Assembly: GCA_041658325.1 (NCBI GenBank)
Contig: JBBAAI010000001.1
Span: 154,869-218,868, forward strand
Length of the DNA stretch: 64,000 bases
Direction: 5' to 3'
From: Minisyncoccota bacterium
GTDB taxonomy: Bacteria; Patescibacteriota; Minisyncoccia; Phycocordibacterales; UBA9973
Position numbers and translations under genes: made by a program. This document shows, piece by piece, positions 7,620 to 61,391 of this stretch. Position 1 is the stretch's first letter; the number at the start of each line of letters is the position of its first letter. The notes under the pieces were generated by a model. The model was not told where the DNA came from, searched no databases, and was given only the letters and a program-made list of their open reading frames with translations.

Positions 7620-7825
7620 TAGTATAATTATTTTTGTGAGATTATTTAAATTACCGCCAGGGCGGAGCAAGAAGGCATTAATCTCTAAGCAATCAGCCAT
7701 CGGTTATACGATTTTGCATAGGACGTTCTGGTACTTTTATTAGTTCACTGGGCCTATCCTATAATAATTTGTTACTCTTGGGGCCCAGCCCCGAAAGGAT
7801 TGTTTAGAGATTAATGCTTTTTTTT
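7620..7825 (+). ncRNA. candidate structured RNA with a possible SRP-RNA domain IV-like motif; unassigned
   Basis: GC-rich islands in an AT-rich 300-bp intergenic region; CCGCCAGGGCGGAGCAAGAAGGCA resembles the 4.5S motif GGUCCGGAAGGAAGCAGCCAAGGCA; long-range inverted repeat gcattaatctctaa (7672) / ttagagattaatgc (7805) followed by T8. Confidence 0.3.
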
Positions 7826-9565: not shown

Positions 9566-11986
9566 ATGCCTGAAAATAATAAAAAATTAGTACTACTAGA
9601 TGCTCACGCTATAATACATCGCGCATATCATGCGTTGCCAGAATTTTTGTCCTCAAAAGGGGAGCCCACTGGAGCTCTTTACGGTCTTTCTAGTATGTTA
9701 ATGAAAATAATTACTGAATTAAAACCAGACTACATTGTTGCTTGTTATGATTTACCACAGAAAACTTTTAGGCACGAAGCTTACGATGGGTATAAGGCGG
9801 GTAGAGCAAAAACAGACGAAGCTCTCATCTCTCAACTAAAGAACTCGCGTCAAATTTTTGAGGGATTTAATATACCAATTTATGATGCTCCTGGATTTGA
9901 AGCCGATGATATTTTAGGAACAATAGTAGAAAAATATAAAAAAGATAAAAAACTAGAAATAATTATTGCCTCGGGAGACATGGATACTATGCAATTAGTG
10001 GAGGATAAAAAGGTACAAGTTTATACTCTAAAAAAGGGAATCAATGACACCATTTTATATGACGAAGACGCAGTAATAAAAAGATTTAACTTTAAGCCGA
10101 AATTTTTACCAGACTATAAAGGTCTACGAGGTGACCCTTCAGATAATATTATTGGCATTAAAGGGATAGGTGAAAAAACTGCTGAAATTTTGATTACAAA
10201 TTTTGGAACGATAGAAGAAATATATAAGAAAATTAAAAAAGACGACGAAGTCTTCAAAAAAGCAGGGATTTCTCCGAGAATAATTGAATTACTAAAAAAC
10301 AATGAGGAGGAAGCTTTCTTTTCAAAAACATTAGCAACAATACGCACAGATGCACCAATAGATTTTGTTTTACCTACAAAAACTTTTTGGAAAAATGTGG
10401 ACCCTAAAAAAATAGAAGAAGTTTTTATTATTTTTGAATTTAGAAGTTTATTTGCACGATTAAAAAATTTTTTAAATTCTTCGGTAAATCCAGCAGAATT
10501 TTCTCAGGTCCTCGGTTCTCCGGGGCCCCGCACCCCGGCCAGACCGTTCGAAAATTCTCTGGATTCACCAATCAACATTAATACTCAAAAATTACAAGAA
10601 GCTAGTATCGCGCTCTGGCTTATTAATTCTGATATTTCAAACCCAGGATTGGAAGATATTTTGCTTTTTGCTAAGACAAAATCTTTTGAGGAGGCATATG
10701 AATTTATTTTTGATAAATTAAAAGAACAAAAATTAGATAAAGTATATGAAGAAATAGAAAAACCGATTATTCCCATAGTGAAAGAAATGGAAGATTTTGG
10801 AATTTTAATAGATAAAAAATATTTTGAAAAATTATCTAATGAATACCATAAAGAATTAGATATTCTAACTAAAAAAATATATAAAGAAGCTGGCGCAGAG
10901 TTTAATATTAATTCTCCAAAGCAAATGGGTGAAGTGCTTTTTGGAAAAATGGGGATGAAGTCTAGTAAAAAGAAAAATGCCAGCGGATCGTTTTCCACGA
11001 AGGTTTCAGTCTTAGAGGAGTTGGAAGAAAACAACCCTATCATAAAAGAAATTTTGGCTTATAGAGAGTTACAAAAATTACTTTCTACTTATATTGATGT
11101 AATTCCAAAAATGGTTTCTGAAGATGGTCGATTACACGCTAAGTTCTTGCAAAATGGAACTACAACTGGTCGATTTTCTTCTCAAGATCCAAATTTACAA
11201 AACTTACCAATAAAAACAGAACTGGGCAGAAAAATTAGAGGTGGTTTTATTGCTGAAAAAGGATGTAAACTCGCGGCCTTTGATTATAGCCAGATTGAAT
11301 TACGTGTAATAGCGATGCTCTCAGGGGATAAAAAGATGATCCAAATTTTTAAGGACAAAAAAGATATTCATGCTGGAGTGGCTTCTTTTGTTTTTGGGGT
11401 GCCTATTGAAAAAGTAGATGGAGAAATGCGTCGCAAGGCAAAGGTAATAAATTTTGGTATTATTTACGGAATGGGGGTTTCCGCCTTAAGAAAAAATCTT
11501 GGAGGTACCCGGGAAGAAGCTCAAAAATTTTATGATAATTATTTTAATCAATTTTCTGGTGTGCGAGATTATTTAGAAAAAGTAAAAATAGATGCTCTTA
11601 AAAAATTTTATACAGAAACTTTATTTGGTCGACGTAGATATTTTCCAAACATAAATTCTAGAATTCCATTTTTAAAAAATATGGCTGAGAGAACAGCAAT
11701 GAATGCTCCTGTTCAGGGCACGGCAACAGCAGACATTATTAAGCTTGCCATAAGATACGCAGAAGAAGATCTGGAAAAAGAGGGTTTATTAAAAAAGACT
11801 CATCTTGTGCTTCAAATACATGATGAATTAGTCTATGAAATAGACGAAAAAGCACTACCACAAGCCTTAAAAATAATAGAAAGTGCAATGAAGGATGTGC
11901 TCAACAGGTCATATTTACACTATAAAACTGATATTCCACTTGAAGTACATTCTGGTTCGGGAAATAATTTTATGGAAGTTAAATAA
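9566..11986 (+). CDS. polA: DNA polymerase I (5'-3' exonuclease + polymerase domains)
   Basis: 5'-3' exo N-terminus LVLLDAHAIIHRAYHA; polymerase motifs DYSQIELR, KVINFGIIYGM, QIHDELVYE. Start taken at MPENNKK (9566). Contains an in-frame GC-rich insert at 10510-10545. Confidence 0.85.
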   Translation: MPENNKKLVLLDAHAIIHRAYHALPEFLSSKGEPTGALYGLSSMLMKIITELKPDYIVACYDLPQKTFRHEAYDGYKAGRAKTDEALISQLKNSRQIFEGFNIPIYDAPGFEADDILGTIVEKYKKDKKLEIIIASGDMDTMQLVEDKKVQVYTLKKGINDTILYDEDAVIKRFNFKPKFLPDYKGLRGDPSDNIIGIKGIGEKTAEILITNFGTIEEIYKKIKKDDEVFKKAGISPRIIELLKNNEEEAFFSKTLATIRTDAPIDFVLPTKTFWKNVDPKKIEEVFIIFEFRSLFARLKNFLNSSVNPAEFSQVLGSPGPRTPARPFENSLDSPININTQKLQEASIALWLINSDISNPGLEDILLFAKTKSFEEAYEFIFDKLKEQKLDKVYEEIEKPIIPIVKEMEDFGILIDKKYFEKLSNEYHKELDILTKKIYKEAGAEFNINSPKQMGEVLFGKMGMKSSKKKNASGSFSTKVSVLEELEENNPIIKEILAYRELQKLLSTYIDVIPKMVSEDGRLHAKFLQNGTTTGRFSSQDPNLQNLPIKTELGRKIRGGFIAEKGCKLAAFDYSQIELRVIAMLSGDKKMIQIFKDKKDIHAGVASFVFGVPIEKVDGEMRRKAKVINFGIIYGMGVSALRKNLGGTREEAQKFYDNYFNQFSGVRDYLEKVKIDALKKFYTETLFGRRRYFPNINSRIPFLKNMAERTAMNAPVQGTATADIIKLAIRYAEEDLEKEGLLKKTHLVLQIHDELVYEIDEKALPQALKIIESAMKDVLNRSYLHYKTDIPLEVHSGSGNNFMEVK

Positions 11987-13261: not shown

Positions 13262-15457
13262 ATGTCAAAAAGTATTTTTAAACTACATAGTCCTTTTAAT
13301 CCCGCGGGAGATCAGCCGGAGGCCATTTTGAAGCTTCTAGGGGGTCTTGAAAAGGGCATGAAAAAACAAACCTTGCTCGGTGCTACTGGCACAGGCAAGA
13401 CTTTTACGATGGCCAATGTGATAGCCAAGTATAATAAACCGACTCTTGTAATCGCGCATAACAAAACACTTGCAGCCCAACTCGCGCAAGAGTTTCGTGA
13501 ATTTTTCCCCGATGCCGCTGTTCATTATTTTGTTTCCTATTACGACTATTATCAGCCGGAAGCATATATGCCTGTTTCTGATACTTATATTGAAAAGGAT
13601 GCGCAAATAAATAAGGAGATTGATCGCTTGCGTCATGCGACGACTCAAGCATTGCTTACGAGGCGTGATGTGATAATCGTCGCTTCTGTTTCTTGTATTT
13701 ACGGACTCGGTTCTCCTGAAGAATATGAGAAAGTAAATTTAAAACTTGAGGTTGGGATGAAGATGGACAGAATGATTTTAATGAAGAAGTTGATTGAAAT
13801 TCATTTTGAGCGGACTAATGCAGACTTAAATCCCGGAACTTTCCGTTCTGTCAGCGCACGAATAGAATTTATGCCAGTTTCAGAAACTTTTATGTATCAA
13901 ATGGAATTTCAAGATGGAAAAATTTTAAAAATAACAAAAATTGATCCAGTTTCTTCCAGTATTTTAGCAGAAGAAAAAAATGTTTTTATTTTTCCAGCGA
14001 AACATTTCATTACCGAGGAAGGCAAATTAAAAAAAGCGCTAGCTAATATTAAAAAAGAGTTGACCGAACAGTTAAAGAAATTTGGAAAAGGAGGAAAGTT
14101 ACTAGAAGCTGAACGGATAAAAAGAAGAACGAATTATGACCTCGCGATGATAAAAGAAGTCGGTTACTGTAGCGGTATAGAAAATTATTCTAGACATTTG
14201 TCTGGGAAAAAAGAAGGTGAACCGCCGGAAACTCTGCTTTCGTACTTTCCGAAAGAAGGTTTTTTAACTATTATTGATGAATCGCATGTTACCTTGCCGC
14301 AACTGCAGGGTATGTATGCCGGAGATGCTTCTCGCAAGAATACATTGGTGGAATATGGTTTTCGCTTGCCTTCAGCGAAGGATAATCGACCGCTTAAGTA
14401 TGAAGAATTCCAAAAACGGATTGGTCCGGTAATTTATACTAGCGCGACACCCTCCGAACAAGAACGCAGTCAAAGCGAACAAATCGTGGAACAAATCATT
14501 CGCCCGACAGGGCTTGTAGATCCAGAGACAATTGTTAAACCAGTCTCAGCGAGGAGGAGTGCTCTCCAGAATTCGCGCTCTATCTTGGAAGGGCAAGTTC
14601 TTTCTGATAGTAGCGAAGATTCCTTCGAGCACAACTCCTCGCCTTACCCCGGCCAAATTCAAGATTTCATTATTGAAACAGAAAAGACAATTAAAAAAGG
14701 TTTCAGGGTTTTAGCTACCACGTTGACAAAAAAAATGGCAGAAGACCTTTCTGTTTATTTAAAAGATAAAAAAATCAAAGCAGACTATTTGCATAGCGAC
14801 ATAAAAACGATGGACAGAATAAAAATCCTCACCCAATTTAGAAAAGGAGTATTTGATGTTTTAGTGGGCGTGAATCTTTTGCGCGAAGGGCTTGATTTGC
14901 CGGAAGTGGCGCTGATCGGGATTTTAGATGCGGATAAAGAAGGGTTTTTGCGCTCAGAAACATCTTTAATTCAAACAATTGGCCGTGCTGCGCGCAATAG
15001 CGAAGGAAGAGTGATTCTTTATGCTGACTCAGTAACCGGCTCGATGGAATATGCCCTTAAAGAAACTGCTCGCCGTCGAAACATCCAGCTTGCTTATAAT
15101 AAAAAACATGGCATCACCCCGAAAACGATTTCTAAAAAAATAAAAGATATTACCGAAGAACTGGAAAGCGAGCACGGCAAAGCGGTGAATGCTGAACTTA
15201 ATCTTGATTTAGAAGTATTCAAAAAAGCGTATTCAAGAGAACTGAGCAAAGAAGAAAAAGCAGGAAGACAAAAAGTTAATTCAGAATTTTGGAATAAAAT
15301 TTTATCCAACGAAGAACGTGGTAATCTTATTTACGAGAAAATAATCAAAATAAAAGAGAAGGAAATGAATAAAGCAGTCAAAGAACTCGACTTCGAGTCC
15401 GCCGCAATTTTAAGAGATGAAATTATTGTACTTAAAGAAAAATTAACAAAAAGTTAA
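13262..15457 (+). CDS. uvrB: excinuclease ABC subunit B
   Basis: Walker A GATGTGKTF; helicase motifs; C-terminal UvrB/UvrC interaction helix. Carries a ~94-bp GC-rich in-frame insert at about 14549-14642. Confidence 0.9.
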   Translation: MSKSIFKLHSPFNPAGDQPEAILKLLGGLEKGMKKQTLLGATGTGKTFTMANVIAKYNKPTLVIAHNKTLAAQLAQEFREFFPDAAVHYFVSYYDYYQPEAYMPVSDTYIEKDAQINKEIDRLRHATTQALLTRRDVIIVASVSCIYGLGSPEEYEKVNLKLEVGMKMDRMILMKKLIEIHFERTNADLNPGTFRSVSARIEFMPVSETFMYQMEFQDGKILKITKIDPVSSSILAEEKNVFIFPAKHFITEEGKLKKALANIKKELTEQLKKFGKGGKLLEAERIKRRTNYDLAMIKEVGYCSGIENYSRHLSGKKEGEPPETLLSYFPKEGFLTIIDESHVTLPQLQGMYAGDASRKNTLVEYGFRLPSAKDNRPLKYEEFQKRIGPVIYTSATPSEQERSQSEQIVEQIIRPTGLVDPETIVKPVSARRSALQNSRSILEGQVLSDSSEDSFEHNSSPYPGQIQDFIIETEKTIKKGFRVLATTLTKKMAEDLSVYLKDKKIKADYLHSDIKTMDRIKILTQFRKGVFDVLVGVNLLREGLDLPEVALIGILDADKEGFLRSETSLIQTIGRAARNSEGRVILYADSVTGSMEYALKETARRRNIQLAYNKKHGITPKTISKKIKDITEELESEHGKAVNAELNLDLEVFKKAYSRELSKEEKAGRQKVNSEFWNKILSNEERGNLIYEKIIKIKEKEMNKAVKELDFESAAILRDEIIVLKEKLTKS

Positions 15458-18143: not shown

Positions 18144-19481
18144 ATGCAAAAAGAGTATCTAAAAAAAGTAAAATTGCCTGATAGGACCGGAGTTTATTTT
18201 TTTCGAAAAGGAAAGGAAATAATTTATATCGGCAAAGCAACTTCTCTTCGAGATAGGGTAAAAAGTTATTTCAGCAAAGATCTCATAGAAACACGCGGGC
18301 AATTCCTTGTGGATATGGTTTTCAAGGCAGATAAAATTGATTGGCAAACTACTGATAGTGTGCTCGAAGCACTAATCCTCGAAGCAAATTTAATTAAAAA
18401 ATATCAGCCGAAATATAATTCCAGAGAAAAAGATGATAAAAGTTTCAATTATGTTTGCATCACGCGTGAAGAAATTCCGAAAGTTGTGCTCGTGAGGGGA
18501 AAAGAATTGGAGGGCTCTGTCGAGCAAAGCTTTTCTCGGGCCCTCGGTTCTCCGGGGCCCCGTGCCCCGGCCAGACCAGCTCGAAAAGCCCCGCTCGGCT
18601 TCGCGAAGGTTTTTGGACCCTATCCGAATGGCGGGCAATTGAAAGAAGCTATAAAAATAATTCGCCGGATATTCCCATTTCTAGACGAGAAGAGTAAAAA
18701 TTATCTTGAATTTTATAAGCAAATAAATTTAGTGCCGGATTTGAAAGACAGGAAACTATATTTGCAGAATATTAGAAATATTATTTTATTTTTTGAAGGG
18801 AAAAAGAAAAAGATTTTGAAAAATTTGGAGAAGGAAATGAAAGAATATGCAAAAAGGAGAGAGTTTGAAAAAGCGGGAGAAATAAAAAGACAAATTTTTG
18901 CGTTGAAACATATAAATGACGTAGCCCTAATCAAAAATGGTAGCTCTGCTTCTTCCAATTTTCTGCCCCTGCGCCCTTCTTCGGGCGCTACGGACTCAAA
19001 GCGGGACCCTCGGGGACAGAAAACTGAAAGAAGCTACGCTAGAATAGAGGCGTATGATATTGCGCATATGGGAGGCAAAAATATGGTTGGGGTTATGGTC
19101 GTTGTAGAGAATGGTGAAGTAAACAAAAACGAATACAGAAAATTCAAAATTAAAACTCAAAAAAATACAAACGACACAGGAGCGTTAAAAGAAGTCATAG
19201 AGAGGCGTTTAGCGCACGCAGAATGGACATTTCCTTCGTTGGTAGTTGTGGATGGAGGAAAAGCGCAAATTAATACAGCAAAAAAAGTTATACTTAAGGC
19301 GGGGTTAAATATTCCGGTGGTCTCAGTTTTAAAAGACGAAAAACATAAACCGAAAGATATTTTAGGCGACAAAATTTTCGCTCGGAAATACGAAAGGGAA
19401 ATTTTGCTTGCCAACAGTGAAGCGCACAGATTTGCGATTAATTATCATAAAAAAATGCGCAATAAGAACTTTTTAAAATAA
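18144..19481 (+). CDS. uvrC: excinuclease ABC subunit C (short form lacking a C-terminal HhH region)
   Basis: GIY-YIG N-terminus GVYFFRKGKEIIYIGKA; UvrC RNase H-like endonuclease region EAYDIAHMGGKNMVG. Two GC-rich in-frame inserts (18542-18577 and about 18955-19025). Confidence 0.8.
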   Translation: MQKEYLKKVKLPDRTGVYFFRKGKEIIYIGKATSLRDRVKSYFSKDLIETRGQFLVDMVFKADKIDWQTTDSVLEALILEANLIKKYQPKYNSREKDDKSFNYVCITREEIPKVVLVRGKELEGSVEQSFSRALGSPGPRAPARPARKAPLGFAKVFGPYPNGGQLKEAIKIIRRIFPFLDEKSKNYLEFYKQINLVPDLKDRKLYLQNIRNIILFFEGKKKKILKNLEKEMKEYAKRREFEKAGEIKRQIFALKHINDVALIKNGSSASSNFLPLRPSSGATDSKRDPRGQKTERSYARIEAYDIAHMGGKNMVGVMVVVENGEVNKNEYRKFKIKTQKNTNDTGALKEVIERRLAHAEWTFPSLVVVDGGKAQINTAKKVILKAGLNIPVVSVLKDEKHKPKDILGDKIFARKYEREILLANSEAHRFAINYHKKMRNKNFLK

Positions 19482-19957: not shown

Positions 19958-20792
19958 AACAAAAATGCGCGCTGCGAGAATTGAGAATGATTCTTTTTAT
20001 TATTCCTTTGCAGCCTTTCTTTCTACATTTTTCTCCTGTGCGGCGGTAAGCTTCGTGGTGTAGTTGGAATTTTCCGGGTAAACCATAAATATTTTTGTAA
20101 TCCGACATTGAGTCCCCACCGAAATCTATGCCTTTCTTTAGTGTTTCTTTTATTGCTTTATATATTAATTTTAATTCCTCATTTTTAATTCGAGAGACTT
20201 TCCTCTCCGGATGCACACCAGCGCGCCAAAGAACTTCATCGGAATAAATATTGCCTATGCCGGCAATAATACCTTGATCCATTAAAACGGTTTTAATTTT
20301 GCCGTTTGGTTTTTTATTTAAGCATTCTTTTAGTTTTTCTAAAGTGAATTTCTTATCTAGCGGTTCGGGGCCAACAGTATTTAAATGTTTGCTGTCATGA
20401 GCAATTTTGGTGTCTAGTAAGATAACTTTTCCAAATTTTCTTATATCTGAAAGCACTAAGTAATTTTTATTTGATAGAGAAAAGACAACATGAGCATATT
20501 TAATTTTTGGGTCTTTGCCGTAAAAGAGGTAGCCAGTCATTTTTAGGTGTACTAGGATTGTCTTATCCTCAGAAAGGTTTATTAAAATATTTTTTGCTCG
20601 CCTTTCTGCTGAAATTATTTTTCTATTTAAAACTTGTTTTTTAAATATAGGAAAATATTTTGGGTCAGCGATGGTGCCCTTTTTTCGCTTATCCTTGGTG
20701 GATAAATCGGTCCAAACGTCTTTTATAGTAAGGTTCACCACGGTTTTCCGCAGGCCACGTACAGTTGTCTCTACCTCAGGTAACTCTGGCAT
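19938..20792 (-). CDS. fpg: formamidopyrimidine-DNA glycosylase
   Basis: MPELPEVETT catalytic N-terminus; C-terminal zinc finger CRKKGCKG...C. Confidence 0.85.
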   Translation of the reverse strand: MPELPEVETTVRGLRKTVVNLTIKDVWTDLSTKDKRKKGTIADPKYFPIFKKQVLNRKIISAERRAKNILINLSEDKTILVHLKMTGYLFYGKDPKIKYAHVVFSLSNKNYLVLSDIRKFGKVILLDTKIAHDSKHLNTVGPEPLDKKFTLEKLKECLNKKPNGKIKTVLMDQGIIAGIGNIYSDEVLWRAGVHPERKVSRIKNEELKLIYKAIKETLKKGIDFGGDSMSDYKNIYGLPGKFQLHHEAYRRTGEKCRKKGCKGIIKRIILNSRSAHFCSTHQAL

Positions 20793-20806
20793 GCTATTAT
20801 CATACT

Positions 20807-21640
20807 ATGAGAAGAATATTATTAACATTTTTAATTTTTGGTCTTTTTTTAACGCCAGTGTTTTTTGTACGCGCGGCAGAGCCGATCAAAATTCTCTTAG
20901 TTCCAGGGCACGATAATGAGATTTGGGGCGCGCAATATGGAAATATTAAAGAGGCGAACATGAACCTTGCTTTAGCTACTAGAATTTATAATCTTTTGAA
21001 GAAAGATAAACGGTTTGTAATATATATTACTCGAGATGAAAATGGATACACGAAAGAGTTTGCAGATTATTTTGCTAATCATCGGGAAGCTATTTTAGCT
21101 TTTAAAGAAAATGCTAAAAAGGAAATGCAAAGTAAAATTACTAATAGTATTTTTGTTCAAAAAGAAAATGTTTTTCACAATACTGTTTCAGAAAATACTG
21201 CGATAATTTTATACGGAATCAATAAATGGGCAAATGAGAATAAAATGGATGCAGTTATTCATATTCATTTTAATGATTATCCTAGGGCGCAAAAATGGAC
21301 GGTGGGGAAATATAAAGGTTTTGCTATTTATATGCCAGACGGACAGCTGGCAAATTGGAAAGAGAGTGGACAGCTTGCCGCAGATATTTTTACTCAGTTA
21401 AGAAAAAAATATATTGCTAGTACTTATGAAAAAGAATTAGGTGGATTAGTTTCAGACCAAAAACTAATAGCCTTAGGTTCTAATGGGACACTTCTTTCTA
21501 GTGTTCGTTCTGTTTTAATAGAGTATAAATATGTTTATGAAAAAATATTACGAACCAAAGCTACTCGCTTAAAGGCGTATGACAATATGGCCAGTCTTAC
21601 TGTACAGGGAATAAAGAATTATTTTTCCCCTCGGCCGTAG
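20807..21640 (+). CDS. secreted N-acetylmuramoyl-L-alanine amidase-like protein (Amidase_3-like)
   Basis: Signal peptide MRRILLTFLIFGLFLTPVFFVRAAEP; LLVPGHDNE and IHIHFNDYP resemble Amidase_3 metal-binding motifs. Start taken at 20807 to avoid overlap with fpg. Confidence 0.45.
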   Translation: MRRILLTFLIFGLFLTPVFFVRAAEPIKILLVPGHDNEIWGAQYGNIKEANMNLALATRIYNLLKKDKRFVIYITRDENGYTKEFADYFANHREAILAFKENAKKEMQSKITNSIFVQKENVFHNTVSENTAIILYGINKWANENKMDAVIHIHFNDYPRAQKWTVGKYKGFAIYMPDGQLANWKESGQLAADIFTQLRKKYIASTYEKELGGLVSDQKLIALGSNGTLLSSVRSVLIEYKYVYEKILRTKATRLKAYDNMASLTVQGIKNYFSPRP

Positions 21641-23239: not shown

Positions 23240-24751
23240 GTGTTGATGTCTAAGGAAGCAAAAGGAATAAGAAAAAACCCAAAAACAAAAGAAACAATAG
23301 TTAGATTTGATAAAGTCTCATTTGAATGGGGCGTAAATAAACCTATTTTAGACGAGGTAAGTTTTACTATTAGACGAGGAATGAAATTCACTTTAATGGG
23401 ACAAAACGGTGCTGGAAAAAGTACTATTTTTGGCTTGATTTCTAATACATGTTTTCCTGAATCTGGAATTATTAATATTGTTAATGGGGTTAGCATCGCT
23501 TCGGCATTACAAGTAATTCCACGTGACCAGCTAAACTTAACTGTGCGAGAATTTTTTGCAAAATGTTTTAAACATAAGGTTTATGATATTGATCCTAAAA
23601 TTGATGATGTTTTAGAAGTAGTGAATTTAAAGGGGCATACAAAAGTCCACGATAAAGTAATTAAAACTTTTTCTGGAGGACAACAAGCTCGACTGCTCCT
23701 CGCTTCAGCTTTAATTCAAGATCCAGATTTATTATTATTAGACGAGCCAACAAACAATCTGGATAGGGCAGGGATAGAGCACTTAACAAAATTTTTAATT
23801 AATTATAAAAAAACAGTTTTGGTTATTTCTCATGATGCAGAATTTTTGAACGCTTTTACTGAAGGAGTGCTTTATTTAGATGTTTATACAAAAAAGATTG
23901 AACAATATGTTGGAAATTATTTTGATGTAGTAAAAGATATTACTGCTCGGGTGGAAAAGGAAAATATGAAAAATGCTCAGTTACAAAAAGAAATTCAAGC
24001 CAAAAAAGATCAAGCCAATGTATTCGCCTATAAGGGTGGAAGGTTGCGACTAGTCGCAAAACGAATGCGAGAAAAAGCAGAAGAACTAGAAGAAGAAATT
24101 GTGGATGTGCGGAAAGAAGATAAATCTATTGGGCCTTTTATTATTCCCAGTCAGCCTGATTTAATTGGAGAAATTTTAAATATTTCTTCTTTTACAACGA
24201 TGAAGAATGGAAAAATTATAAAACATAAAGCTAAAATATCTTTAAATAAAAATAAACATTTACTTTTACGAGGGCCAAATGGCGTCGGTAAAACCACTTT
24301 ATTGGAGAGATTAGCTAGTGGCCATGCAGATGGAGAAAAAGTGTCCGAGGGAATACGTATTGGATATTATCGGCAAGATTTTTCTACTCTTAATTTTGAA
24401 GATACGGTTTACCAATCTTTAGCACAATCGATGAAAGATGGCGGAGAAAGATTAGATGAAGAAAAAATGCGTTCTATTGCTGCTGGATTTTTAATTACAG
24501 GAGAATTTATTCGTACAAAAATAGGAGATCTTTCAGAAGGGCAAAAAGGCCTAGTTGCCTTTGCGAGATTGGTTTTACAAAAACCAGGACTTTTAATATT
24601 AGACGAACCGACTAATCATATAAATTTTCGTCATTTGCCAATTGTCGCGCAAGCGCTAGATAAATATGTTGGGGCGATGATTCTTGTTTCTCACGTGCCA
24701 GAATTTGTAAAACAAATTAGGATTGATGAAGTATTGGATCTAGAAAAGTAA
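23240..24751 (+). CDS. ABC-F family ATPase (tandem ABC domains, no TMD)
   Basis: Two Walker A motifs (GQNGAGKST, GPNGVGKTT), two LSGGQ-like signatures, linker between. Confidence 0.8.
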   Translation: MLMSKEAKGIRKNPKTKETIVRFDKVSFEWGVNKPILDEVSFTIRRGMKFTLMGQNGAGKSTIFGLISNTCFPESGIINIVNGVSIASALQVIPRDQLNLTVREFFAKCFKHKVYDIDPKIDDVLEVVNLKGHTKVHDKVIKTFSGGQQARLLLASALIQDPDLLLLDEPTNNLDRAGIEHLTKFLINYKKTVLVISHDAEFLNAFTEGVLYLDVYTKKIEQYVGNYFDVVKDITARVEKENMKNAQLQKEIQAKKDQANVFAYKGGRLRLVAKRMREKAEELEEEIVDVRKEDKSIGPFIIPSQPDLIGEILNISSFTTMKNGKIIKHKAKISLNKNKHLLLRGPNGVGKTTLLERLASGHADGEKVSEGIRIGYYRQDFSTLNFEDTVYQSLAQSMKDGGERLDEEKMRSIAAGFLITGEFIRTKIGDLSEGQKGLVAFARLVLQKPGLLILDEPTNHINFRHLPIVAQALDKYVGAMILVSHVPEFVKQIRIDEVLDLEK

Positions 24752-27320: not shown

Positions 27321-27384
27321 ATTATTTTATTAATTAACCCACGCTTTTGGCGGGGCAAGTTATTAAAAGTGAAACTAATTTTTC

Positions 27385-27470
27385 ACTCTCTAAAGATATG
27401 ACGTAGAAACAATGTTTTTATTTCATAGCTTTAGAGAGTGGAGGAGGGGAGCAATGCTCTCCCTCCTCAC
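27385..27470. promoter_or_regulatory. two adjacent inverted repeats in the intergenic region between surface-protein genes (terminator/regulatory)
   Basis: cactctctaaag...ctttagagagtg (12-bp arms) and gaggaggggag caatg ctccctcctc (11-bp arms). Confidence 0.4.
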
Positions 27471-37460: not shown

Positions 37461-37991
37461 ATGTCACAAAATAATGATTTTTTTTCTTCTTTAGTCCCAA
37501 ACGAAAAAAGAGAACAGAGGAAAGAAATTTTTAAGAGTATAAAAGCAAAGACCGATGCAGAAAGAACAATGCCAGAAAAAATTGCCGACTGGATGACTTC
37601 AAATTTTGGCAGTATGACCTTTTTACTTATAAATGTCTGCATATTTATTGCCTGGATAGTGATTAACATAATTGAAATAGAAACAGTTCCTTCTTTTGAT
37701 CCCTTTCCCTTTAATCTTCTAACTACTTTTGTCTCGCTGGAGGCCATCATCCTAGCTATTTTCGTGCTCATTTCGCAGAATCGCAGCGCTAAAATAGCAG
37801 ATCTAAGAGAAGAAACTCAATTACAATTAGATCTTGTTTCGGAAAGAGAAATTACCGAGCTTATTAAAATGCTAATTGTTCTATTAGAAAAACAAGGGAT
37901 AGATTTATCAAAGAACCTCGAAATTAAAAAAATGATTCTCCCGCTCAACGAGGAAGAAATAGAAAAAAAATTGGAAAAAGAAATTTTGTAA
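37461..37991 (+). CDS. DUF1003-like membrane protein
   Basis: Two TM helices; FDPFPFNLLTTFVSLEAIILAIFVLISQNR resembles the DUF1003 core. Start taken at MSQNND (37461). Confidence 0.45.
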   Translation: MSQNNDFFSSLVPNEKREQRKEIFKSIKAKTDAERTMPEKIADWMTSNFGSMTFLLINVCIFIAWIVINIIEIETVPSFDPFPFNLLTTFVSLEAIILAIFVLISQNRSAKIADLREETQLQLDLVSEREITELIKMLIVLLEKQGIDLSKNLEIKKMILPLNEEEIEKKLEKEIL

Positions 37992-39025
37992 TGGAAATTT
38001 TACGAGATTATAACTTATCTGAATTAAACACTTTCGGCATAAAAGTTAATGCAAAATTTTTTATAGAAATAGCTTCTGAAAAAGATTTAACAGAACTTTT
38101 TAACTCGCCAGAATTTAGGCAAAACGAAAAACTATTTTTAGGAGGAGGAAGCAATGTTCTATTTACCAAAGATTTTGAGGGAATAGTTGTTTTAAATAAA
38201 ATAAAAGGAATAGAAATTCTTAAAGAAGATTCTGAAAATGTTCTTGTCCGGGCGATGGGTGGAGAAATTTGGCACGACCTTGTAATGTTTGCGGTAAATC
38301 GTGGATATTGGGGTATTGAAAATTTATCGCTTATTCCTGGCACTGTCGGGGCTGCACCGGTACAAAATATCGGGGCCTATGGTGTTGAAATTAAAGATGT
38401 TTTAGAAAACGTTGAAGCTTTTGAAGTTGAGACAGGCATAAAAAAATTTTTTAGTAAAGAAGAATGTGGATTAGATTATCGAGACAGTATTTTTAAAAAT
38501 AAAGCTAAAGGAAAATATTTTATTTCAGCAATAACTGTAAAATTAGGAAAAATAAATAAAAAAAATGTCGAATATAAATCACTCAAAGAATATTTAGAAA
38601 AAAATAGAATTGAAATTCACAACCCAAAGGATGTAAGCGATGTGGTAGTGGCTATCCGTCAAGATAAATTGCCAGATCCAAAGATCTTAGGCAATGCCGG
38701 CAGTTTTTTCAAAAATGTTTATGTGGACGAAATTAAATTAAAAACGCTGCAAGAAAAATTCTCAGATATTCCATTTTTTAGAGAAGGAGCGGGAATAAAA
38801 ATTCCGGCTGGTTGGCTCGTAGAACAATGCGGCCCACACCACGGCGGGGCAAGCTGGAAGGAAAAGAGAATAGGTAATGTTGGCGTTTACGAAAAACAGG
38901 CTTTAGTGTTGGTAAATTACGGCGGAGCAAGTGGGGAAGAACTTGTAGAATTAGCTAAGAATATTATTGTGTCCGTTGAAGAAAAATTTAGCCTTGAATT
39001 GGTGCCAGAAGTCAATATTGTGTAA
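37991..39025 (+). CDS. murB: UDP-N-acetylenolpyruvoylglucosamine reductase
   Basis: FAD-binding LGGGSNVLF motif; 344 aa long-type MurB. Confidence 0.75.
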   Translation: MEILRDYNLSELNTFGIKVNAKFFIEIASEKDLTELFNSPEFRQNEKLFLGGGSNVLFTKDFEGIVVLNKIKGIEILKEDSENVLVRAMGGEIWHDLVMFAVNRGYWGIENLSLIPGTVGAAPVQNIGAYGVEIKDVLENVEAFEVETGIKKFFSKEECGLDYRDSIFKNKAKGKYFISAITVKLGKINKKNVEYKSLKEYLEKNRIEIHNPKDVSDVVVAIRQDKLPDPKILGNAGSFFKNVYVDEIKLKTLQEKFSDIPFFREGAGIKIPAGWLVEQCGPHHGGASWKEKRIGNVGVYEKQALVLVNYGGASGEELVELAKNIIVSVEEKFSLELVPEVNIV

Positions 39026-42755: not shown

Positions 42756-44111
42756 CTATTTTAGAACAATATCGTGTTCTCCTCTTTTGATATCAAATCG
42801 GTCTATTTCTTTATCTAAATGTATTACTAACCCAAATTTTCCAAAAAGGTTGAGCAAAGAATCAGCCATCATTTTGGCTTTTTTCCTTAAGGTAGGATGT
42901 ACGAATCTTGTAGCTCGTAATTCCGTTAAATACACCAAAGCGGGGATTCCGCCAGTTAATCTATTTGAAATATTATATCCCATAGCCAGATAGTATTGTC
43001 TTTCCTCTTTAGAAACATTTATTTTTTTGATTTTATCTTCTTGTTTTTCTAAAAATAATTTTGCTTTAGTTCTTAATTCTTCGGGTAGTTCCTCCAGATA
43101 CCATTTTTCGAAACCGATTTCTGGGGTTAAAAGAGGCATTCTTTGAATAACGGCGCGATGTCTTTGGATGTCGCGAAACGATCCGAAATCAAGAAGAAAT
43201 TCAAATTGCAAAGTTCCAGCTTCGCTCAAGTATTTCGGTAATTCTGTTTTTGCAGGTCTATTTTCTAGAATTTTTTTCAGCAATAAACTGGTGTTTATAG
43301 AATTATTCACCATTTTAAAATCTGGACAATTTTTATCGTGATAATAGTAATCTTTTTCCATCCATTCTTTGTTATAATTTTCCGTATTCTCGTAGTGTTC
43401 ATGTCCAAACGAGTTTGGAAAAGCTAAACGCAAAGCCTCTTCTATCGCTTCAGCAACATTTTTAACTTCCTCAAGTGGATGATGACGGAGTAGCATTACT
43501 TTATCCGCTGCTTGTCTTAAATTTGTATGCCAAGCCAAATTTGTTGTTGACCCAGCCGGTAAAAATCCTCTTAATATATCAAAAGCTCTGGCGCTGATAG
43601 CTTTGTCATAAATGATTTCTTTTTCTCCTTCGCCTAGGGGAAATTGTGCCTTTAAATATTTCTTAGTTGGTTCTAATGCTTCAATATAAAACTTTCTGTA
43701 AGCTTCCAATATTTCTTCTCCTTCTTTTGTGCCTAGTGGATTTTTAAATGGTTGAGTTTGAAAATCAATATATCTTGTTGAGGATTCTTGTCCGGAATAT
43801 AAAGGCCAGTCTTGTATGGCTTTCGCTACTAACATTGAAACCCCTTCAATAAATATTGAAGTAGTACCGCAGTCGCCGATAGATTTGTGCCCATAGCCGA
43901 CATAAAAGTTTTTCATAAAATTCTCCGGTCCTTTTTCTGAAAGAATTTTCAAATGATTTTTGAGTCCTCCAGTAGAACGAGAGTGAAGAGCCTGGAGCAT
44001 CGCAGCTGATTCTGGTCCGATGACCGAGCCGGTATCTAAAACGATAACTACGCCGCCTCCTTTTATTTGTGTTTCTGAATGTTTAAGTTCTTCGAGATTT
44101 TTATTTGCCAT
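42756..44111 (-). CDS. ThyX-like flavin-dependent thymidylate synthase, unusually long (451 aa, possibly duplicated domain)
   Basis: RHR motif (FRDIQRHRAVIQR) and S-x-RY (ESSTRYIDF) reminiscent of ThyX; context with dCMP deaminase and dNMP kinase. Motif order is atypical, so the call is tentative. Confidence 0.4.
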   Translation of the reverse strand: MANKNLEELKHSETQIKGGGVVIVLDTGSVIGPESAAMLQALHSRSTGGLKNHLKILSEKGPENFMKNFYVGYGHKSIGDCGTTSIFIEGVSMLVAKAIQDWPLYSGQESSTRYIDFQTQPFKNPLGTKEGEEILEAYRKFYIEALEPTKKYLKAQFPLGEGEKEIIYDKAISARAFDILRGFLPAGSTTNLAWHTNLRQAADKVMLLRHHPLEEVKNVAEAIEEALRLAFPNSFGHEHYENTENYNKEWMEKDYYYHDKNCPDFKMVNNSINTSLLLKKILENRPAKTELPKYLSEAGTLQFEFLLDFGSFRDIQRHRAVIQRMPLLTPEIGFEKWYLEELPEELRTKAKLFLEKQEDKIKKINVSKEERQYYLAMGYNISNRLTGGIPALVYLTELRATRFVHPTLRKKAKMMADSLLNLFGKFGLVIHLDKEIDRFDIKRGEHDIVLK

Positions 44112-45495: not shown

Positions 45496-45544
45496 AAACA
45501 AATTTTTTAGTGGTATTGCAAAAAAAATAATATATGCTAAATTA

Positions 45545-45850
45545 ATTTCCAGATGCACAACAGGTTAGCCATCGTCTTATTCGTCGTCCTTCGACCTCTA
45601 GGGGCCAGGACAAAACCAGTCATCAGGCTGCAACCCAAGAGGTAGTAGCCAACACAAAGAAAGAGAGGTGTAACCTCGGCGGGCGCAAGTGGATTGGGAC
45701 TCCACAATCACGTGATCGGGTTCGACTCCCGCATCCATGGCAACATGGAAGGGCTGTGGTTAAGTCCGCTACGAACAAGAAAATCCGAAATCCCCGGAAC
45801 CAAGAACCAAGGGGGTGCTGGCAAGCCGGCACCCCCTAATTTTTTTTAAT
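45545..45850 (+). ncRNA. unassigned ~300-nt structured RNA with own promoter and terminator; contains tRNA-like T-arm (candidate tmRNA-like or other)
   Basis: Sigma70-like ttgcaa-N17-tatgct at about 45513-45536; GC-rich body; GGGUUCGACUCCCG T-arm-like hairpin (45717-45731); ccatg GCAA catgg GNRA hairpin; terminal gggggtgctggcaagccggcaccccc + T8 terminator; no long ORF. Confidence 0.4.
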
Positions 45851-45856
45851 TAACTA

Positions 45857-45884
45857 AAAAATCCACCACTGGTGGATTTTTGTT
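45857..45884 (-). terminator. intrinsic terminator after rpmB
   Basis: aaaaatccacca(g/c)tggtggattttt palindromic hairpin flanked by A/T runs. Confidence 0.7.
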
Positions 45885-45885
45885 T

Positions 45886-46137
45886 TTATTTTGCTTGTAT
45901 TAGTTCGGCCTTGAGGAGGGTGGCGTAGACGCCGTTTTTGTTCATGGTGCGTATGCCACGAGCGGAGATTTCAATATTTACAGTTTTATTTAATTCAGGC
46001 ACAAAAAAGCGCTTCTTTTGAAGATTTGGATATTTTCTCTTTTTGCCGGTCGGGTTAAATTTCGTGGCACGAGTCCTGTTTGAGTATCCGCCTCCGACGA
46101 TTGAACCCTTTTTTGTTATTGCACATACTTTCTTCAT
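45886..46137 (-). CDS. rpmB: 50S ribosomal protein L28
   Basis: 83 aa; MKKVCAITKKGSIVGGGYSNRTRATKF typical L28. Confidence 0.8.
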   Translation of the reverse strand: MKKVCAITKKGSIVGGGYSNRTRATKFNPTGKKRKYPNLQKKRFFVPELNKTVNIEISARGIRTMNKNGVYATLLKAELIQAK

Positions 46138-58561: not shown

Positions 58562-58590
58562 TGACTTTTTCTTAAAATATGCTATCCTAT
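58562..58590 (+). promoter_or_regulatory. sigma70-like promoter for DGR target gene
   Basis: ttgact-N17-tatcct; followed by a 46-nt leader hairpin gtcatagcca...tggctatgac (58626-58671). Confidence 0.45.
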
Positions 58591-58750
58591 AAAGATAGTT
58601 CTTTAAAATTACTTGCGAAGGTGGTCATAGCCAAAAGGTGCTTAATATTAGGCATTTCCTGGCTATGACTACCGTTGTGGTTGTCCTCTAGCAAAAACCT
58701 AACCGATGCGTCCTATGGGATGTGTCAAAGAAAAAGGAAGGATGTGCCAA

Positions 58751-59377
58751 ATGGCAAATGCGTCCGAAATCTCTGTCGGTTTAGTTCACGAGCTCGCCAT
58801 CACGGGCACCAAGGTCGGATTCGAGCCCAAAGACTTCGCTACTCTCGCCCACAGCGAGGAAAGGATGTCTTCCATCCTCGGCGTGCTTCATGGTACGCAC
58901 GAGATCCGTCCGATCGATTATGTGATCGATTTCAACTCTCCGGCTCGGTTGCCGTTCAACGGTGCCGTGCTCGAGGTGCACCGCGGAACGGGCATCGTCA
59001 AGCTCGAGAAGAAGGCCGACGGCCTGTATCTCGACGGAAAGAAGCTCACGCTCTTTCTCTCCAAGAAGCAGAAAAAGGGAGGCGTCATCGAGGGCAACAA
59101 GCTTCGCATCGAGCTCGAAAAGAGGGGTAAAAATGTAGGAGCGAAACTCCTTGACCACTTCGTCGAGCATCCAGAGATGTGGCCCGAGGAGTGGAAGAAG
59201 GACGACCAGGGTAATACGCTCTACGTGTTTTTCTGGGATGACATCTTCCGCAACCCGGCGTGTGGCGATCTGTATGTCCGGTGTGGGTGCTGGCGCGGAG
59301 GCGAGGTCATCTCGGGCTACGACTGGCTCGGCGATGACTGGCGCGGCCGCAGCCCGGCTGTCTCTTCCGTAAGTTAG
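58751..59377 (+). CDS. DGR target (variable) protein; C-terminal VR; GC-rich
   Basis: About 208 aa. The 3' 124 bp is homologous to the TR with mismatches only at TR adenines. Start chosen at MANASEISVG (aggaagg SD 9 nt upstream); ORF track alternative start is 58706. Confidence 0.75.
   Translation: MANASEISVGLVHELAITGTKVGFEPKDFATLAHSEERMSSILGVLHGTHEIRPIDYVIDFNSPARLPFNGAVLEVHRGTGIVKLEKKADGLYLDGKKLTLFLSKKQKKGGVIEGNKLRIELEKRGKNVGAKLLDHFVEHPEMWPEEWKKDDQGNTLYVFFWDDIFRNPACGDLYVRCGCWRGGEVISGYDWLGDDWRGRSPAVSSVS
59246..59369 (+). repeat. DGR variable repeat (VR)
   Basis: ttccgcaacccggcg...gctgtctcttccg; 104/124 identical to TR; all 20 mismatches lie opposite TR adenines. Confidence 0.85.
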
Positions 59378-59426
59378 TAATCAGAACTTTGCCTCTTGGA
59401 TCTTCTTGATCCTTGAGACTTAGTCC

Positions 59427-59473
59427 TTGGGCCCTGTGTGTTTGCTTCGGCATTCGCGCAGGGCCTTTTGTTT
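59427..59473 (+). terminator. hairpin + T-run after target gene
   Basis: gggccctg tgtgtttgcttcggcattcgcg cagggcc ttttgtttt. Confidence 0.55.
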
Positions 59474-59706
59474 TGGTAAAATAAATATGGTAGTAGGTGA
59501 ATACGCGAGCGACCACGGTTTCTCGCTACCGAATCCAGTATCCGTATGTCGAGAATATTTGCGACTAAGGTTTCAAATAGGGTGATATACGAAGACACTT
59601 CAAAAATGAAGTTACTTGGTGTAAGGTGCTATGGCATTACGATGCCGAATACGATACAACCTTGAGAGTATTCAAAAGGTGGTGGCACAGAAGGCAGCTT
59701 ACACAT

Positions 59707-59830
59707 TTCCGCAACCCGGCGAATGGCAATCTGTATGTCCGGTATGGGTACTGGAACGAAGGCAAGGTCATCTCGAACTACAACTGGCTCGACAATGACT
59801 GGAACGGCAACAACCCGGCTATCTCTTCCG
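59707..59830 (+). repeat. DGR template repeat (TR)
   Basis: Intergenic copy of VR, rich in AAC/AAT codons (nine Asn codons in VR frame). The open frame in the ORF track (59626..59859) is a consequence of VR homology. Confidence 0.85.
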
Positions 59831-59839
59831 CAACTTACT

Positions 59840-60205
59840 TCATTTCTCTCTCGTCTTAACGGCGGGAGAGTTTTGTTTTAGGAGTTGTCCGTTCCAACCC
59901 CCGAGCATTTTTCCAATTTCTTCTATTTTTTGAGAAAGAACAATATATTTTTTATCGTCAATTGATTTTGCTTCCCATAAAACCATCAAAAGTATTTTTA
60001 GAGTATCTGATTTTCGTATCGCTAACCGAACCCAAGGATGTTTTTCTTCTCGAGATAAAAAAGTAGCGATAGAAACAGCTTCAATAATTTCAATAAACAT
60101 CGTATCAATCTTTAATCCCAAAGAGTGCTTGTGTATTTTGGGCAGAATTTGATAAAAGGTAATCCAGAGAAGATAACAGCTCTTAACTTTTGCCAATAAT
60201 GGCAA
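59840..60205 (-). CDS. avd: Avd-like four-helix-bundle accessory protein (TIGR02436 / 23S rRNA-IVS protein family-like)
   Basis: About 120 aa; EAVSIATFLSRE and EEIGKMLGGW match the AVSIPSNIAEG and eeIgkML signatures of the family; lies between TR and RT on the opposite strand; apparent TTG start. Confidence 0.5.
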   Translation of the reverse strand: MPLLAKVKSCYLLWITFYQILPKIHKHSLGLKIDTMFIEIIEAVSIATFLSREEKHPWVRLAIRKSDTLKILLMVLWEAKSIDDKKYIVLSQKIEEIGKMLGGWNGQLLKQNSPAVKTREK

Positions 60206-60210
60206 AAGTT

Positions 60211-60220
60211 GGGGGGGGGG
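60211..60220. repeat. G10 homopolymeric tract in the divergent avd/RT intergenic region
   Basis: gtt gggggggggg tac, 17 nt upstream of the RT ATG. Confidence 0.9.
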
Positions 60221-60236
60221 TACTATTATAAATACT

Positions 60237-61253
60237 ATGTCCCGAATCCAATTTAGTCATACTTACGACTATATCATTTCTCTAGAAAATCTGCTTTTGG
60301 CGTGGAAAGAATTTGTTGTCGGCAAGAAAAATCGCAAAGACGTAGAAGAATTTCAAAGAAATTTGATGACTAATATAATTTCGTTACATACGGATTTAGT
60401 AAATAAAGCATACAAGCATTCCCAATATGAAGCATTTAATATTTCTGACCCAAAACCGCGCAATATTCACAAAGCGAAAGTACGGGACAGATTATTACAT
60501 CATGCGATTTATCGAGTTTTGTATCCTTTTTTTGACAGGACATTTATTACTGACTCCTATTCTTGCAGAAAAAACAAAGGAACACATAAAGCCATAAACA
60601 GATTCAGAAAATTTGCCTATCAAGCGTCAAAAAATCATACCAGAACAGTTTGGGTTTTGAAAGGGGATATTAAAAAATTCTTTGCTAATATTGATCACGA
60701 AATATTAAAAGGAATTTTGAGAAAACATATTCAAGATAAAAATGTTCTTTGGCTCTTGGGGCAGGTGATAGATAGCTTTTCTTCCCAAAAACATATTTAC
60801 GCTATCGCTGATATATGCAGTAAGGGTTTACCACTCGGCAATCTAACTTCCCAACTTTTAGTAAATATTTATATGAATGAATTTGATCAATTTGTGAAAC
60901 ATAAAATCAAAGCGAAACACTATGTTCGTTATGCGGATGATTTTGTAATTTTGTCGCAAAATAGAAAATGGTTAGAAAATACAATTGTTAGAATAAAAGA
61001 TTTTCTTGAAAATGAACTTATGCTTTCTTTACATCCTGCAAAATTATCCATAAGTACCGTTGCCTCTGGCGTGGATTTTTTGGGTTGGGTTTTATTTCCA
61101 GACCATAGGGTAGTCAGGACTATCACGAAACGGAGGATGTTTCATGGTGTAAAAAAGAAGCACGGGAGTTTTGAAACAGTGCAATCATATCTAGGCTTGT
61201 TAAGCCATGGAAATGCAAGAAAGTTAGAAAGTGAGATAAAAAATTATATTTGA
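60237..61253 (+). CDS. DGR-type reverse transcriptase
   Basis: RT motifs 1-2 (ISDPKPRNIHKAKVRDRLLHHAIY), motif 4 LGNLTSQLLVNIYM with DGR-specific SQ, motif 5 YVRYADDFVIL (YADD); 338 aa. Confidence 0.85.
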   Translation: MSRIQFSHTYDYIISLENLLLAWKEFVVGKKNRKDVEEFQRNLMTNIISLHTDLVNKAYKHSQYEAFNISDPKPRNIHKAKVRDRLLHHAIYRVLYPFFDRTFITDSYSCRKNKGTHKAINRFRKFAYQASKNHTRTVWVLKGDIKKFFANIDHEILKGILRKHIQDKNVLWLLGQVIDSFSSQKHIYAIADICSKGLPLGNLTSQLLVNIYMNEFDQFVKHKIKAKHYVRYADDFVILSQNRKWLENTIVRIKDFLENELMLSLHPAKLSISTVASGVDFLGWVLFPDHRVVRTITKRRMFHGVKKKHGSFETVQSYLGLLSHGNARKLESEIKNYI

Positions 61254-61391
61254 CTCTTTTGGGATTATTTGCTAATATCAAAACAAGGGAATAGGGCTTT
61301 GATTAATCCACTTTTCTCCTTTAATTCTTTAGTTTTAAAGGGTTAAAGAAAAAAAGTGAGATATTAACGGAGCAATCCTGATAAATTATTT

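Follow-up and report, generated by a model that had tools for sequence, protein, structure and literature searches.

The 64-kb stretch analysed here (64,000 nt; hereafter the window) belongs to a Minisyncoccota bacterium (GenBank assembly GCA_041658325.1, contig JBBAAI010000001.1, positions 154,869 to 218,868 of the forward strand) and contains a uvrB gene whose reading frame holds the 94-nt palindromic segment that is the subject of this report. The uvrB open reading frame (ORF; 13262..15457, plus strand) specifies 731 amino acids (aa) and matches solved UvrB structures with a phmmer E value of 4e-230; its product is 100% identical to the excinuclease ABC subunit UvrB of a Candidatus Paceibacterota metagenome-assembled genome. 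Codons 430-460 are taken up by the palindromic segment (14549..14642, plus strand; peptide ARRSALQNSRSILEGQVLSDSSEDSFEHNSS), which, on the grounds of its repeat ends, its fold and a covariance-model match, we assign to a family of insertion elements called family A below.

A first-pass annotation, made from the sequence of the window, had drawn attention to 8-bp perfect terminal repeats, and these lie exactly as it described them, with octamer GCGAGGAG at 14549-14556 and octamer CTCCTCGC at 14635-14642. At a spacing of 60-90 nt the pair occurs once in the window and in 0/100 dinucleotide shuffles. The palindrome is longer than these 8-bp ends, having arms of 16 nt. Its left arm (GCGAGGAGGAGTGCTC; 14549..14564, plus strand), the first 8 nt of which are the terminal repeat, and its right arm (GAGCACAACTCCTCGC; 14627..14642, plus strand) form a 16-bp closing stem with 14 Watson-Crick pairs and two adjacent mismatches, and both arms lie inside the insert. 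They enclose a 62-nt core (14565..14626, plus strand) which alignments define as conserved across the family and which reads TCC..TTCGC..TGGAAGGGCAAG..CTG.T.G..GCGAAGA..TC. As a whole, the 94 nt fold into a single long hairpin with a minimum free energy of -48.6 kcal/mol (z = -4.7), a stability reached by 0/200 shuffles.

The segment had also been called GC-rich, and its GC content is indeed deviant when computed: 52.1%, compared with 38.2% in the remaining uvrB and 36.2% in the window. At third codon positions the values are 58% for the element and 33% for the remaining uvrB, and just 4.5% of all 94-nt stretches in the window reach the element's GC. The local contrast is modest, since the conserved uvrB sequence immediately upstream is already 45-48% GC. 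As proposed, the insert is kept in frame, consisting of 31 codons (14549-14641) without a stop.

At the protein level, the roughly 31 residues reported as extra relative to canonical UvrB have no counterpart in solved structures: residues 430-460 remain unpaired against every solved UvrB and are located between '...VKPV(K)' and 'GQIDDL' (an example of a peptide spanning the insert is SILEGQVLSDSSEDSFEHNSSPYPGQIQDFIIETEK). Among the matches listed, UvrBs from outside the candidate phyla radiation (CPR) lack it too, aligning over only 111 aa of a 145-aa query around the insert. An AlphaFold2 (AF2) model places residues 432-459 in coil, with a predicted local distance difference test score (pLDDT) of 30-38, after a strand and ahead of the helix that opens the next domain (domain 3). 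The insert is thus predicted to be a disordered surface loop (pLDDT <50), and, according to the comparison with solved UvrBs and this moderate-quality model, its position in an inter-domain surface linker fits the host fold.

Occupied and empty sites among relatives

The closest relatives show how variable this linker is. We compared the 120 closest UvrBs, all from Paceibacterota or Nomurabacteria-like organisms, 75-85% identical and 697-808 aa long. In ~40 of these 120 the site, here termed uvrB site 1, is empty, with a short linker of the type 'SEKGN-YKGQI'; the insert is thus missing from close relatives as well as from unrelated UvrBs. The other proteins carry site-1 inserts of at least five unrelated peptide types, of which the commonest is that of the window, '..L(R/Q)xSHSVLEGQ..S..SEDSSEH..', which is family A. 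In the loci that we fetched, the other site-1 inserts are strong hairpins too, with z from -4.9 to -8.9.

A second insertion hot spot, uvrB site 2, lies directly before the DESH box (FP-KEG-FL; 14246..14266, plus strand). It is empty in the window, while relatives hold family A or other hairpin families there; it behaves like site 1 among relatives ('FP..FLTIIDESH'), and the closest relative, L081, has a family-A copy in it. On the UvrB protein tree, the insert states at both sites are patchy. Several relatives retain truncated remnants ('SEDSSEHVRYP', 'HTGSSEHAPD', 'HEDSGAAG'), and these partial remnants are likewise in frame. Others have a short palindromic footprint, such as 'FPHIENQPDFL', and in L139 GAAGCTTC is retained where the window holds the element. 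At site 1 of L123 (4718-4829), an antisense family-A copy, read in another frame (..YSQRNIRNDQIDLALPRQSANSGEN..), is directly followed by the 3' half of a sense copy (..HSEYSSKNI..); either one element has inserted into another or the core has been inverted.

Two further observations concern the same genes. At uvrB site 1 of L001, L019 and L115 there are ~60-70 nt hairpin inserts with a common AGGTC(T/G)G(G/A)CC motif, stems of 12-20 bp and z of -4.9 to -8.1, which look like yet another family at this site. In addition, when L081-L083, L140 and the window are compared, the proteins that differ in length between close relatives are mainly PolA (815-875 aa), UvrA (841-895 aa), UvrB (697-808 aa) and UvrC (414-445 aa); the adjoining type II secretion system (T2SS) ATPase is constant at 565 aa throughout the genomes examined, and there is hardly any variation in the two small genes that separate polA from uvrB.

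Family A in other genes and genomes

The family core was first seen in the DNA of three relatives, as ATGCTC..TTCGC..TGGAAGGGCAAG..CTG.T.G..GCGAAGAT..GAGCAT. A degenerate form of this pattern, run on public metagenome contigs on both strands and without regard to context, matched 55 loci. Six of these (L099, L102, L113, L119, L121 and L132) are chance matches in other frames, and most of the rest are real copies. A covariance-model search gave 59 matches, including three copies that the exact pattern had missed. When a family-A covariance model built from 45 copies was used to scan the window, the uvrB element was the sole significant match (14540-14651, 92.5 bits, E = 2e-20), and the remaining matches were generic hairpins. 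One of the candidates considered there, a weak blastn and covariance-model match at 24616-24712, falls in the Walker-B/D-loop region of an ABC-F ATPase and was set aside as chance similarity.

Altogether, family A comprises ~49 copies from independent metagenomes at seven host sites in six proteins. These are the polA linker (~21-24 copies), uvrB site 1 (~ten unique copies), uvrB site 2 (~nine unique copies), uvrA (L128, L115), uvrC (L114, L127), the isoleucyl-tRNA synthetase gene ileS (L111) and ksgA, encoding KsgA (L117). Five of the seven sites are within the polA-uvrBAC cluster. Single genomes can hold up to three copies inside one 13-kb locus: L081 has them at the orthologous uvrB site 1, at uvrB site 2 and in polA, and L115 in polA, uvrB and uvrA, with an antisense copy of a different family, family P, in its uvrC. 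Every real copy lies within an ORF, and the both-strand metagenome scan found none among the ~49 in intergenic DNA, a count that reflects few independent events.

All ~49 copies but one, that of L123, share the same orientation and reading frame. That is, 45/45 sense copies are in one phase with the host frame open, and the host frame of the antisense copy is open too. We considered whether stop codons alone might impose this single frame, and rejected the idea, given that the +0 frame is open in 44/45 copies and the antisense frames in 19-35/45. The used frame yields a hydrophilic peptide rich in S, E, R and H, the +0 frame a hydrophobic one, and frame choice is probably set by tolerance rather than by mere openness.

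The conserved frame bears on the possibility that the segment is an intervening sequence absent from the protein, removed from the mRNA by hairpin-aided, intron-like excision or skipped by ribosome bypass. Insertions in rRNA genes are a known feature of CPR bacteria, the GC-rich insert contrasts with an AT-rich genome, and its stem would bring both insert boundaries side by side. An excised or bypassed sequence would not need to preserve the host frame, however, and yet all 45 sense copies and the one complete antisense copy do so, here with exactly 31 codons, as do the partial remnants. No known ribozyme or intron model matches, and 31 aa are too short for an intein. We therefore regard removal of the segment before or during translation as very unlikely.

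Could the insert instead be a functional loop, that is, a lineage-specific adaptive extension of UvrB with, for example, an interaction or regulatory role, its palindromy being incidental? It is always in frame and stop-free, its site is a surface linker, and the peptide motif SHSVLEGQ..S..SEDSSEH recurs in many proteins. Against such a role, the same peptide occurs at seven unrelated positions in six different proteins, it is patchily present among relatives of 77-85% identity and leaves truncated remnants, AF2 predicts it to be disordered, and neither the hairpin (z = -4.7) nor the covarying 21-bp stem described below is incidental. The pattern of conservation also speaks against it. Four orthologues, compared separately at codon positions 1/2/3, show identities of 0.79-0.92 / 0.75-0.83 / 0.67-0.83 for the core and 0.83-0.91 / 0.90-0.94 / 0.46-0.57 in the remaining uvrB, so that third positions of the core are far more, and second positions less, conserved than those of the host gene. 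A further comparison agrees with this result but is affected by the way in which the copies were found. Because codon-position identity is flat, the core is constrained, or was recently copied, at the level of the nucleotides and not of the peptide. The functional-loop explanation is thus largely refuted, and we give it hardly any credence.

The closing stem and the nature of the element

Comparison of the copies shows which parts of the element are common property and which are local. A family-A copy is a ~62-nt core closed by a stem of usually 20-22 bp, giving an element length of 94-104 nt. Only the inner 6-10 bp of the stem (GAATATGCTC/GAGCATATTC) are common to the family, and the outer 11-15 bp differ from site to site. 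The 8-bp terminal repeats pointed out by the first-pass annotation are accordingly copy-specific, and it is the internal core that defines the family. This core has a mean column identity of 73%, contains an invariant internal TTCGC/GCGAA helix (99% paired), and gives complete copies scores of 88-121 bits with the covariance model.

Variable as they are, the arms remain complementary. Among 1125 stem cells there are 1014 Watson-Crick pairs, 16 G-U, 50 A-C and 45 others, so that 91.6% of cells are paired, compared with 64% after shuffling and 34-42% with slid partners. Changes on both sides of the stem were counted in 318 cells against 92 ± 8 expected, and 19/21 outer pairs covary. Within a single orthologous site, that of polA (n = 21), 88.7% of cells are Watson-Crick, compared with 54.6% when arms are shuffled among species.

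In several copies, host codons themselves serve as one arm. At uvrB site 2 the right arm consists of the host's conserved PDFL codons, and in L116 of the host codons for YPGQI; in these copies the left arm is an exact inverted complement of the host codons, with 20/20 or 21/21 pairs, and tracks their synonymous differences between species (L095, L115, L131, L136, L116). The cores show a different kind of kinship. Within one genome, the core in polA can closely match that at uvrB site 2 (97% identity in L115, 92% in L122) even with unrelated outer stems, and derived residues are common to different insert sites in P0076, P0080, P0014 and P0049.

Similar hairpins of other families occupy the same linkers. 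The polA gene of the window carries a hairpin insert unrelated to family A (10483..10569, plus strand; fold z = -6.2) which is 85% identical to a segment of uvrC (18520..18587, plus strand; E = 1e-13 to the polA copy); this second copy has no long closing stem and a fold z of -1.4. Together they represent family P, and the polA copy occupies the position in polA where other genomes have family A. A third, unrelated hairpin insert of ~100 nt lies further downstream in uvrC (18941..19041, plus strand; fold z = -4.5), as identified by site comparison. This uvrC site contains four different inserts in four genomes (the window, L081, L114 and L115), among them family A in L114 and antisense family P in L115. 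Strong intragenic hairpins in the window are confined to polA, uvrB and uvrC, which harbour all four intragenic hairpin inserts. The earlier proposal of small palindromic insertions in repair genes therefore holds as far as their presence in polA, uvrB and uvrC goes. It does not hold in treating them as one family: the uvrB element, the polA/uvrC element and the second uvrC hairpin have no mutual sequence similarity and make up three distinct families. As to family P itself, its polA and uvrC copies encode the peptide FSQVLGSPGPRTPARP; it is also found in uvrB site 2 of P0010, joined to the 3' half of a family-A copy, and in reverse orientation, translated as GLAGVGDPGNRGPEKK, in uvrC (L115 13337-13391) and at uvrB site 1 (P0008, P0041).

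Since unrelated hairpins share sites and arms can be exact inverted copies of the adjoining host sequence, one might suppose that the hairpins were made locally, by replication template switching at a fragile linker, with no mobile element involved and their similarities convergent. Template switching is indeed able to create hairpins, as well as to maintain them (PMC8794818). Nevertheless, copies from seven sites and dozens of genomes have a homologous 62-nt core, with the column identity and bit scores given above, and family P is also shared, between polA and uvrC. Cores shared in this way cannot have independent origins and must stem from copying from one site to another; template switching accounts for the arms, not for the cores. 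Local origin is thus refuted as a complete explanation, and we consider it very unlikely as such. The process survives as a proposed mechanism of arm upkeep.

The most serious rival is a regulatory structure of RNA (or DNA) that would act in cis and serve the host, for example as a ~21-bp RNase III-type or other structure-specific site that would coregulate the polA, uvrA, uvrB and uvrC mRNAs. The concentration of host sites in the polA-uvrBAC cluster, and of all four intragenic hairpins of the window in polA, uvrB and uvrC, would fit this idea. So would a core conserved at the nucleotide level, very strong covariation even inside single orthologous sites, and a stem whose length, ~20-22 bp or about two turns of the helix, is uniform with and without host codons. 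The pairing itself argues otherwise: G-U is the rarest class (16/1125 cells, as against 50 A-C), a pattern that marks an inverted repeat in DNA, not a sense-strand RNA helix. The excess of A-C over G-U might suggest a structure on the antisense strand, whose fold is slightly more stable in 31/45 copies, although many A-C cells represent the same E-to-K or H-codon variants common to related copies. Moreover, many close relatives have no insert or only halves of it, unrelated hairpin families with different cores occupy the same sites, copies exist in both orientations, and ileS and ksgA are hosts as well. An Rfam search at a permissive threshold gave no match better than E = 1 for the element, and a promoter and terminator scan revealed nothing relevant at it. 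On balance, we judge a regulatory structure to be unlikely.

In the interpretation that we favour, and whose probability we put at roughly 70%, the segment is a copy of a selfish palindromic insertion element that is non-autonomous, resides in coding genes of Paceibacterota and resembles the palindromic elements of Rickettsia. The element would sit in a permissive inter-domain linker of UvrB and be read through in its one hydrophilic, stop-free frame, displaying a disordered loop of ~31 residues while UvrB stays intact; translation is suggested by the intact frames, and the insert would be nearly neutral for UvrB function. Cores would pass from one occupied site of a genome to another through copying, gene conversion or re-insertion, mostly in the linked polA-uvrB-uvrA-uvrC cluster, and arms would be rebuilt from whatever flanks the core, host codons included. 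That the hairpin is kept at the DNA level is indicated by the Watson-Crick-only complementarity, the arms made of host codons, the multi-nucleotide 'compensatory' differences and the inverted core. Most likely, then, the arms owe their perfect match to a process at the DNA level, for instance template switching, which could operate within one strand at the hairpin during replication or repair synthesis and could also invert the core. Template switching has been reported to homogenise the arms of inverted repeats and invert their spacers (PMC8604942), and to be frequent at Escherichia coli quasipalindromes (PMC7202029). Elements may eventually be lost by deletions across the hairpin, which would leave the short palindromic footprints and half-elements. 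The concentration in polA-uvrB-uvrA-uvrC may stem from local copying, from the tolerance of large multidomain proteins, or from something functional.

Several observations weigh against a selfish element. No transposase or other mobilising enzyme was found in the ten window ORFs scanned, which hold housekeeping genes and the reverse transcriptase of a diversity-generating retroelement, nor was an autonomous insertion sequence (IS) with matching ends found in these ORFs or around the fetched loci. Target-site duplications are lacking as well, the flanking direct repeat being 0 nt in 26/41 copies, 1 nt in 11 and 2-3 nt in 4, which is chance level, and the search found no family-A copy in viral contigs. 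With no enzyme, no target-site duplication and no viral copy, the first colonisation of an empty site is left unexplained. Only ~seven host sites are independent, so few events underlie the orientation bias and the enrichment in repair genes. Stem length is uniform at ~21 bp with or without host sequence, which simple template switching does not predict and which looks like a functional or mechanistic length requirement, and selection on RNA or DNA structure may be the force that keeps the arms. Finally, the AF2 model of the window UvrB has a mean pLDDT of only 63.

A more specific idea, which we offer as speculation and hold to be rather doubtful, is that the inserts are a kind of mobile DNA not described before, in which only the ~62-nt core moves and its 21-bp stem is rebuilt by inverted copying of the target flank, the element spreading within, and perhaps via, the repair machinery (PolA or patch synthesis in nucleotide-excision repair). 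Alternatively, as part of the same conjecture, the two-turn stems might be structure-specific control points of polA-uvrABC. Either way, such palindrome-targeted, in-frame elements would be a general, hitherto overlooked source of protein length variation in CPR bacteria.

Other features of the window and relation to known elements

Elsewhere in the window, a few additional features stand out. A diversity-generating retroelement spans 58700-61260. The C-terminus of its ORF 58706..59377 (variable-repeat-like, ~59241-59370) matches a template-repeat-like copy at ~59703-59830, with differences at A positions of the template repeat (for example, GGCGAATGGCAAT vs GGCGTGTGGCGAT). Its reverse transcriptase is encoded at 60237..61253 (Pfam RVT_1, E = 1.5e-25), and strong local hairpins lie within the cassette at 58571-58710 and 59371-59490. 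Between the genes of a DEAD-box helicase and a small basic protein, positions 45540-45900 are GC-rich and strongly structured with no convincing ORF; nothing in Rfam exceeded threshold for this region (best score 28.7 bits vs a gathering score of 55), which may be an unannotated RNA gene. An AT-rich inverted repeat (7669-7823; 26-nt arms, 88% complementary, 103 nt apart) lies in the intergenic DNA that separates the T2SS-ATPase gene from the ruvB-like one. No other local fold of the window is as stable as the near-perfect hairpin at 27384-27440 (28-nt arms, 86% complementary, 1-nt loop), which has a 616-aa repeat-containing surface-type protein on one side and a glycine-rich, collagen-like ORF on the other. 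Lastly, three proteins are long relative to their domain matches: a MurB_C match covers 130 aa for 99 profile positions (37991-39025), an Amidase_3 match 243 aa for 174 (20765-21640), and a ThyX-like ORF of 451 aa has a 190-aa domain match (42756-44111). These proteins may carry further lineage-specific insertions.

The closest parallel to family A is provided by the Rickettsia palindromic elements (RPE-1 to RPE-10; Ogata et al. 2000, 2002), in-frame examples of which are summarised in PMC10969869 and PMC1779305. Both are interspersed palindromic repeats (~100-150 bp for RPEs) that lie in frame in unrelated housekeeping genes with a conserved frame and peptide, are compatible with the host protein fold, form several families per lineage with lineage-specific proliferation, and have no known transposase and a reduced, AT-rich host genome. 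We liken family A to RPEs by description, and treat it as an analogue rather than a member, for it occurs in another phylum (Paceibacterota/CPR), is shorter (~94-104 nt), has a site-specific closing stem that can use host codons, is concentrated in the linked polA-uvrBAC cluster, and has its linker sites reused by many unrelated families. Furthermore, RPE copies are abundant also in intergenic regions and RNA genes, whereas every real family-A copy found by the scan of both strands was inside an ORF.

The first-pass annotation had called the segment a structure resembling a miniature inverted-repeat transposable element (MITE). A palindromic insertion in frame it is, but not a textbook MITE, because it lacks a target-site duplication and no transposase was seen among the ORFs scanned. 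Bacterial MITEs (Correia, ERIC, BOX, RUP, Nezha and others) are similarly small (<300 bp), non-autonomous, non-coding by themselves and multi-copy, with inverted-repeat ends and hairpin potential, and occasionally form in-frame fusions (PMC10969869). Family A differs from them in that its terminal repeats are not family-wide, only the internal core being shared, in that no parent IS was found, and in that all copies found are intragenic, so that RPEs are the closer analogue. Read as a MITE-like in-frame palindromic insertion, one of several in repair genes, the earlier interpretation is supported.

Other systems share single aspects with family A. In repetitive extragenic palindromes (REPs), the bacterial interspersed mosaic elements (BIMEs) with their REP-associated tyrosine transposases (RAYTs), and IS200/IS605 elements, structure is kept more than stem sequence; by likeness, the hairpin could be the recognised form of family A, and single-strand DNA chemistry is conceivable. 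However, REPs are 20-40 nt, extragenic, clustered and accompanied by a RAYT gene, whereas family A is ~94 nt and intragenic, and no RAYT, TnpA or Y1-transposase domain was found in the ten ORFs scanned in the 64-kb window. In yeast mitochondria, GC clusters and byp elements are GC-rich hairpins in organelle genes, and byp elements are bypassed, not translated. Template-switch (quasipalindrome) mutagenesis accounts for Watson-Crick-only arms, multi-nucleotide changes, arm extension into host flanks and the spacer inversion of L123; being a mutational process and not an element, it leaves the 62-nt core at seven sites and the ~21-bp stem unexplained. The coding palindromes of Nematomorpha mitochondria (PMC6649704) are also long, near-perfect inverted repeats tolerated in frame in AT-rich coding genes with upkeep at the DNA level, but they are organellar and both of their arms encode conserved protein. 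A non-exhaustive search of the literature turned up no report of elements of this kind in CPR/Patescibacteria.

Palindromes that encode protein in frame have been portrayed as something peculiar to Rickettsia. That the CPR offers an independent and richer example suggests that small, AT-rich genomes give rise to them repeatedly. In practice, inserts of this kind can lead gene calling, alignment and marker-gene phylogeny astray in the CPR and make proteins look more novel than they are. The dozens of orthologous and paralogous copies constitute a natural experiment on hairpin upkeep, in which template switching and selection can be directly tested against each other. The inserts also explain much of the length variation, puzzling otherwise, of UvrB, PolA, UvrA and UvrC among close Paceibacterota.

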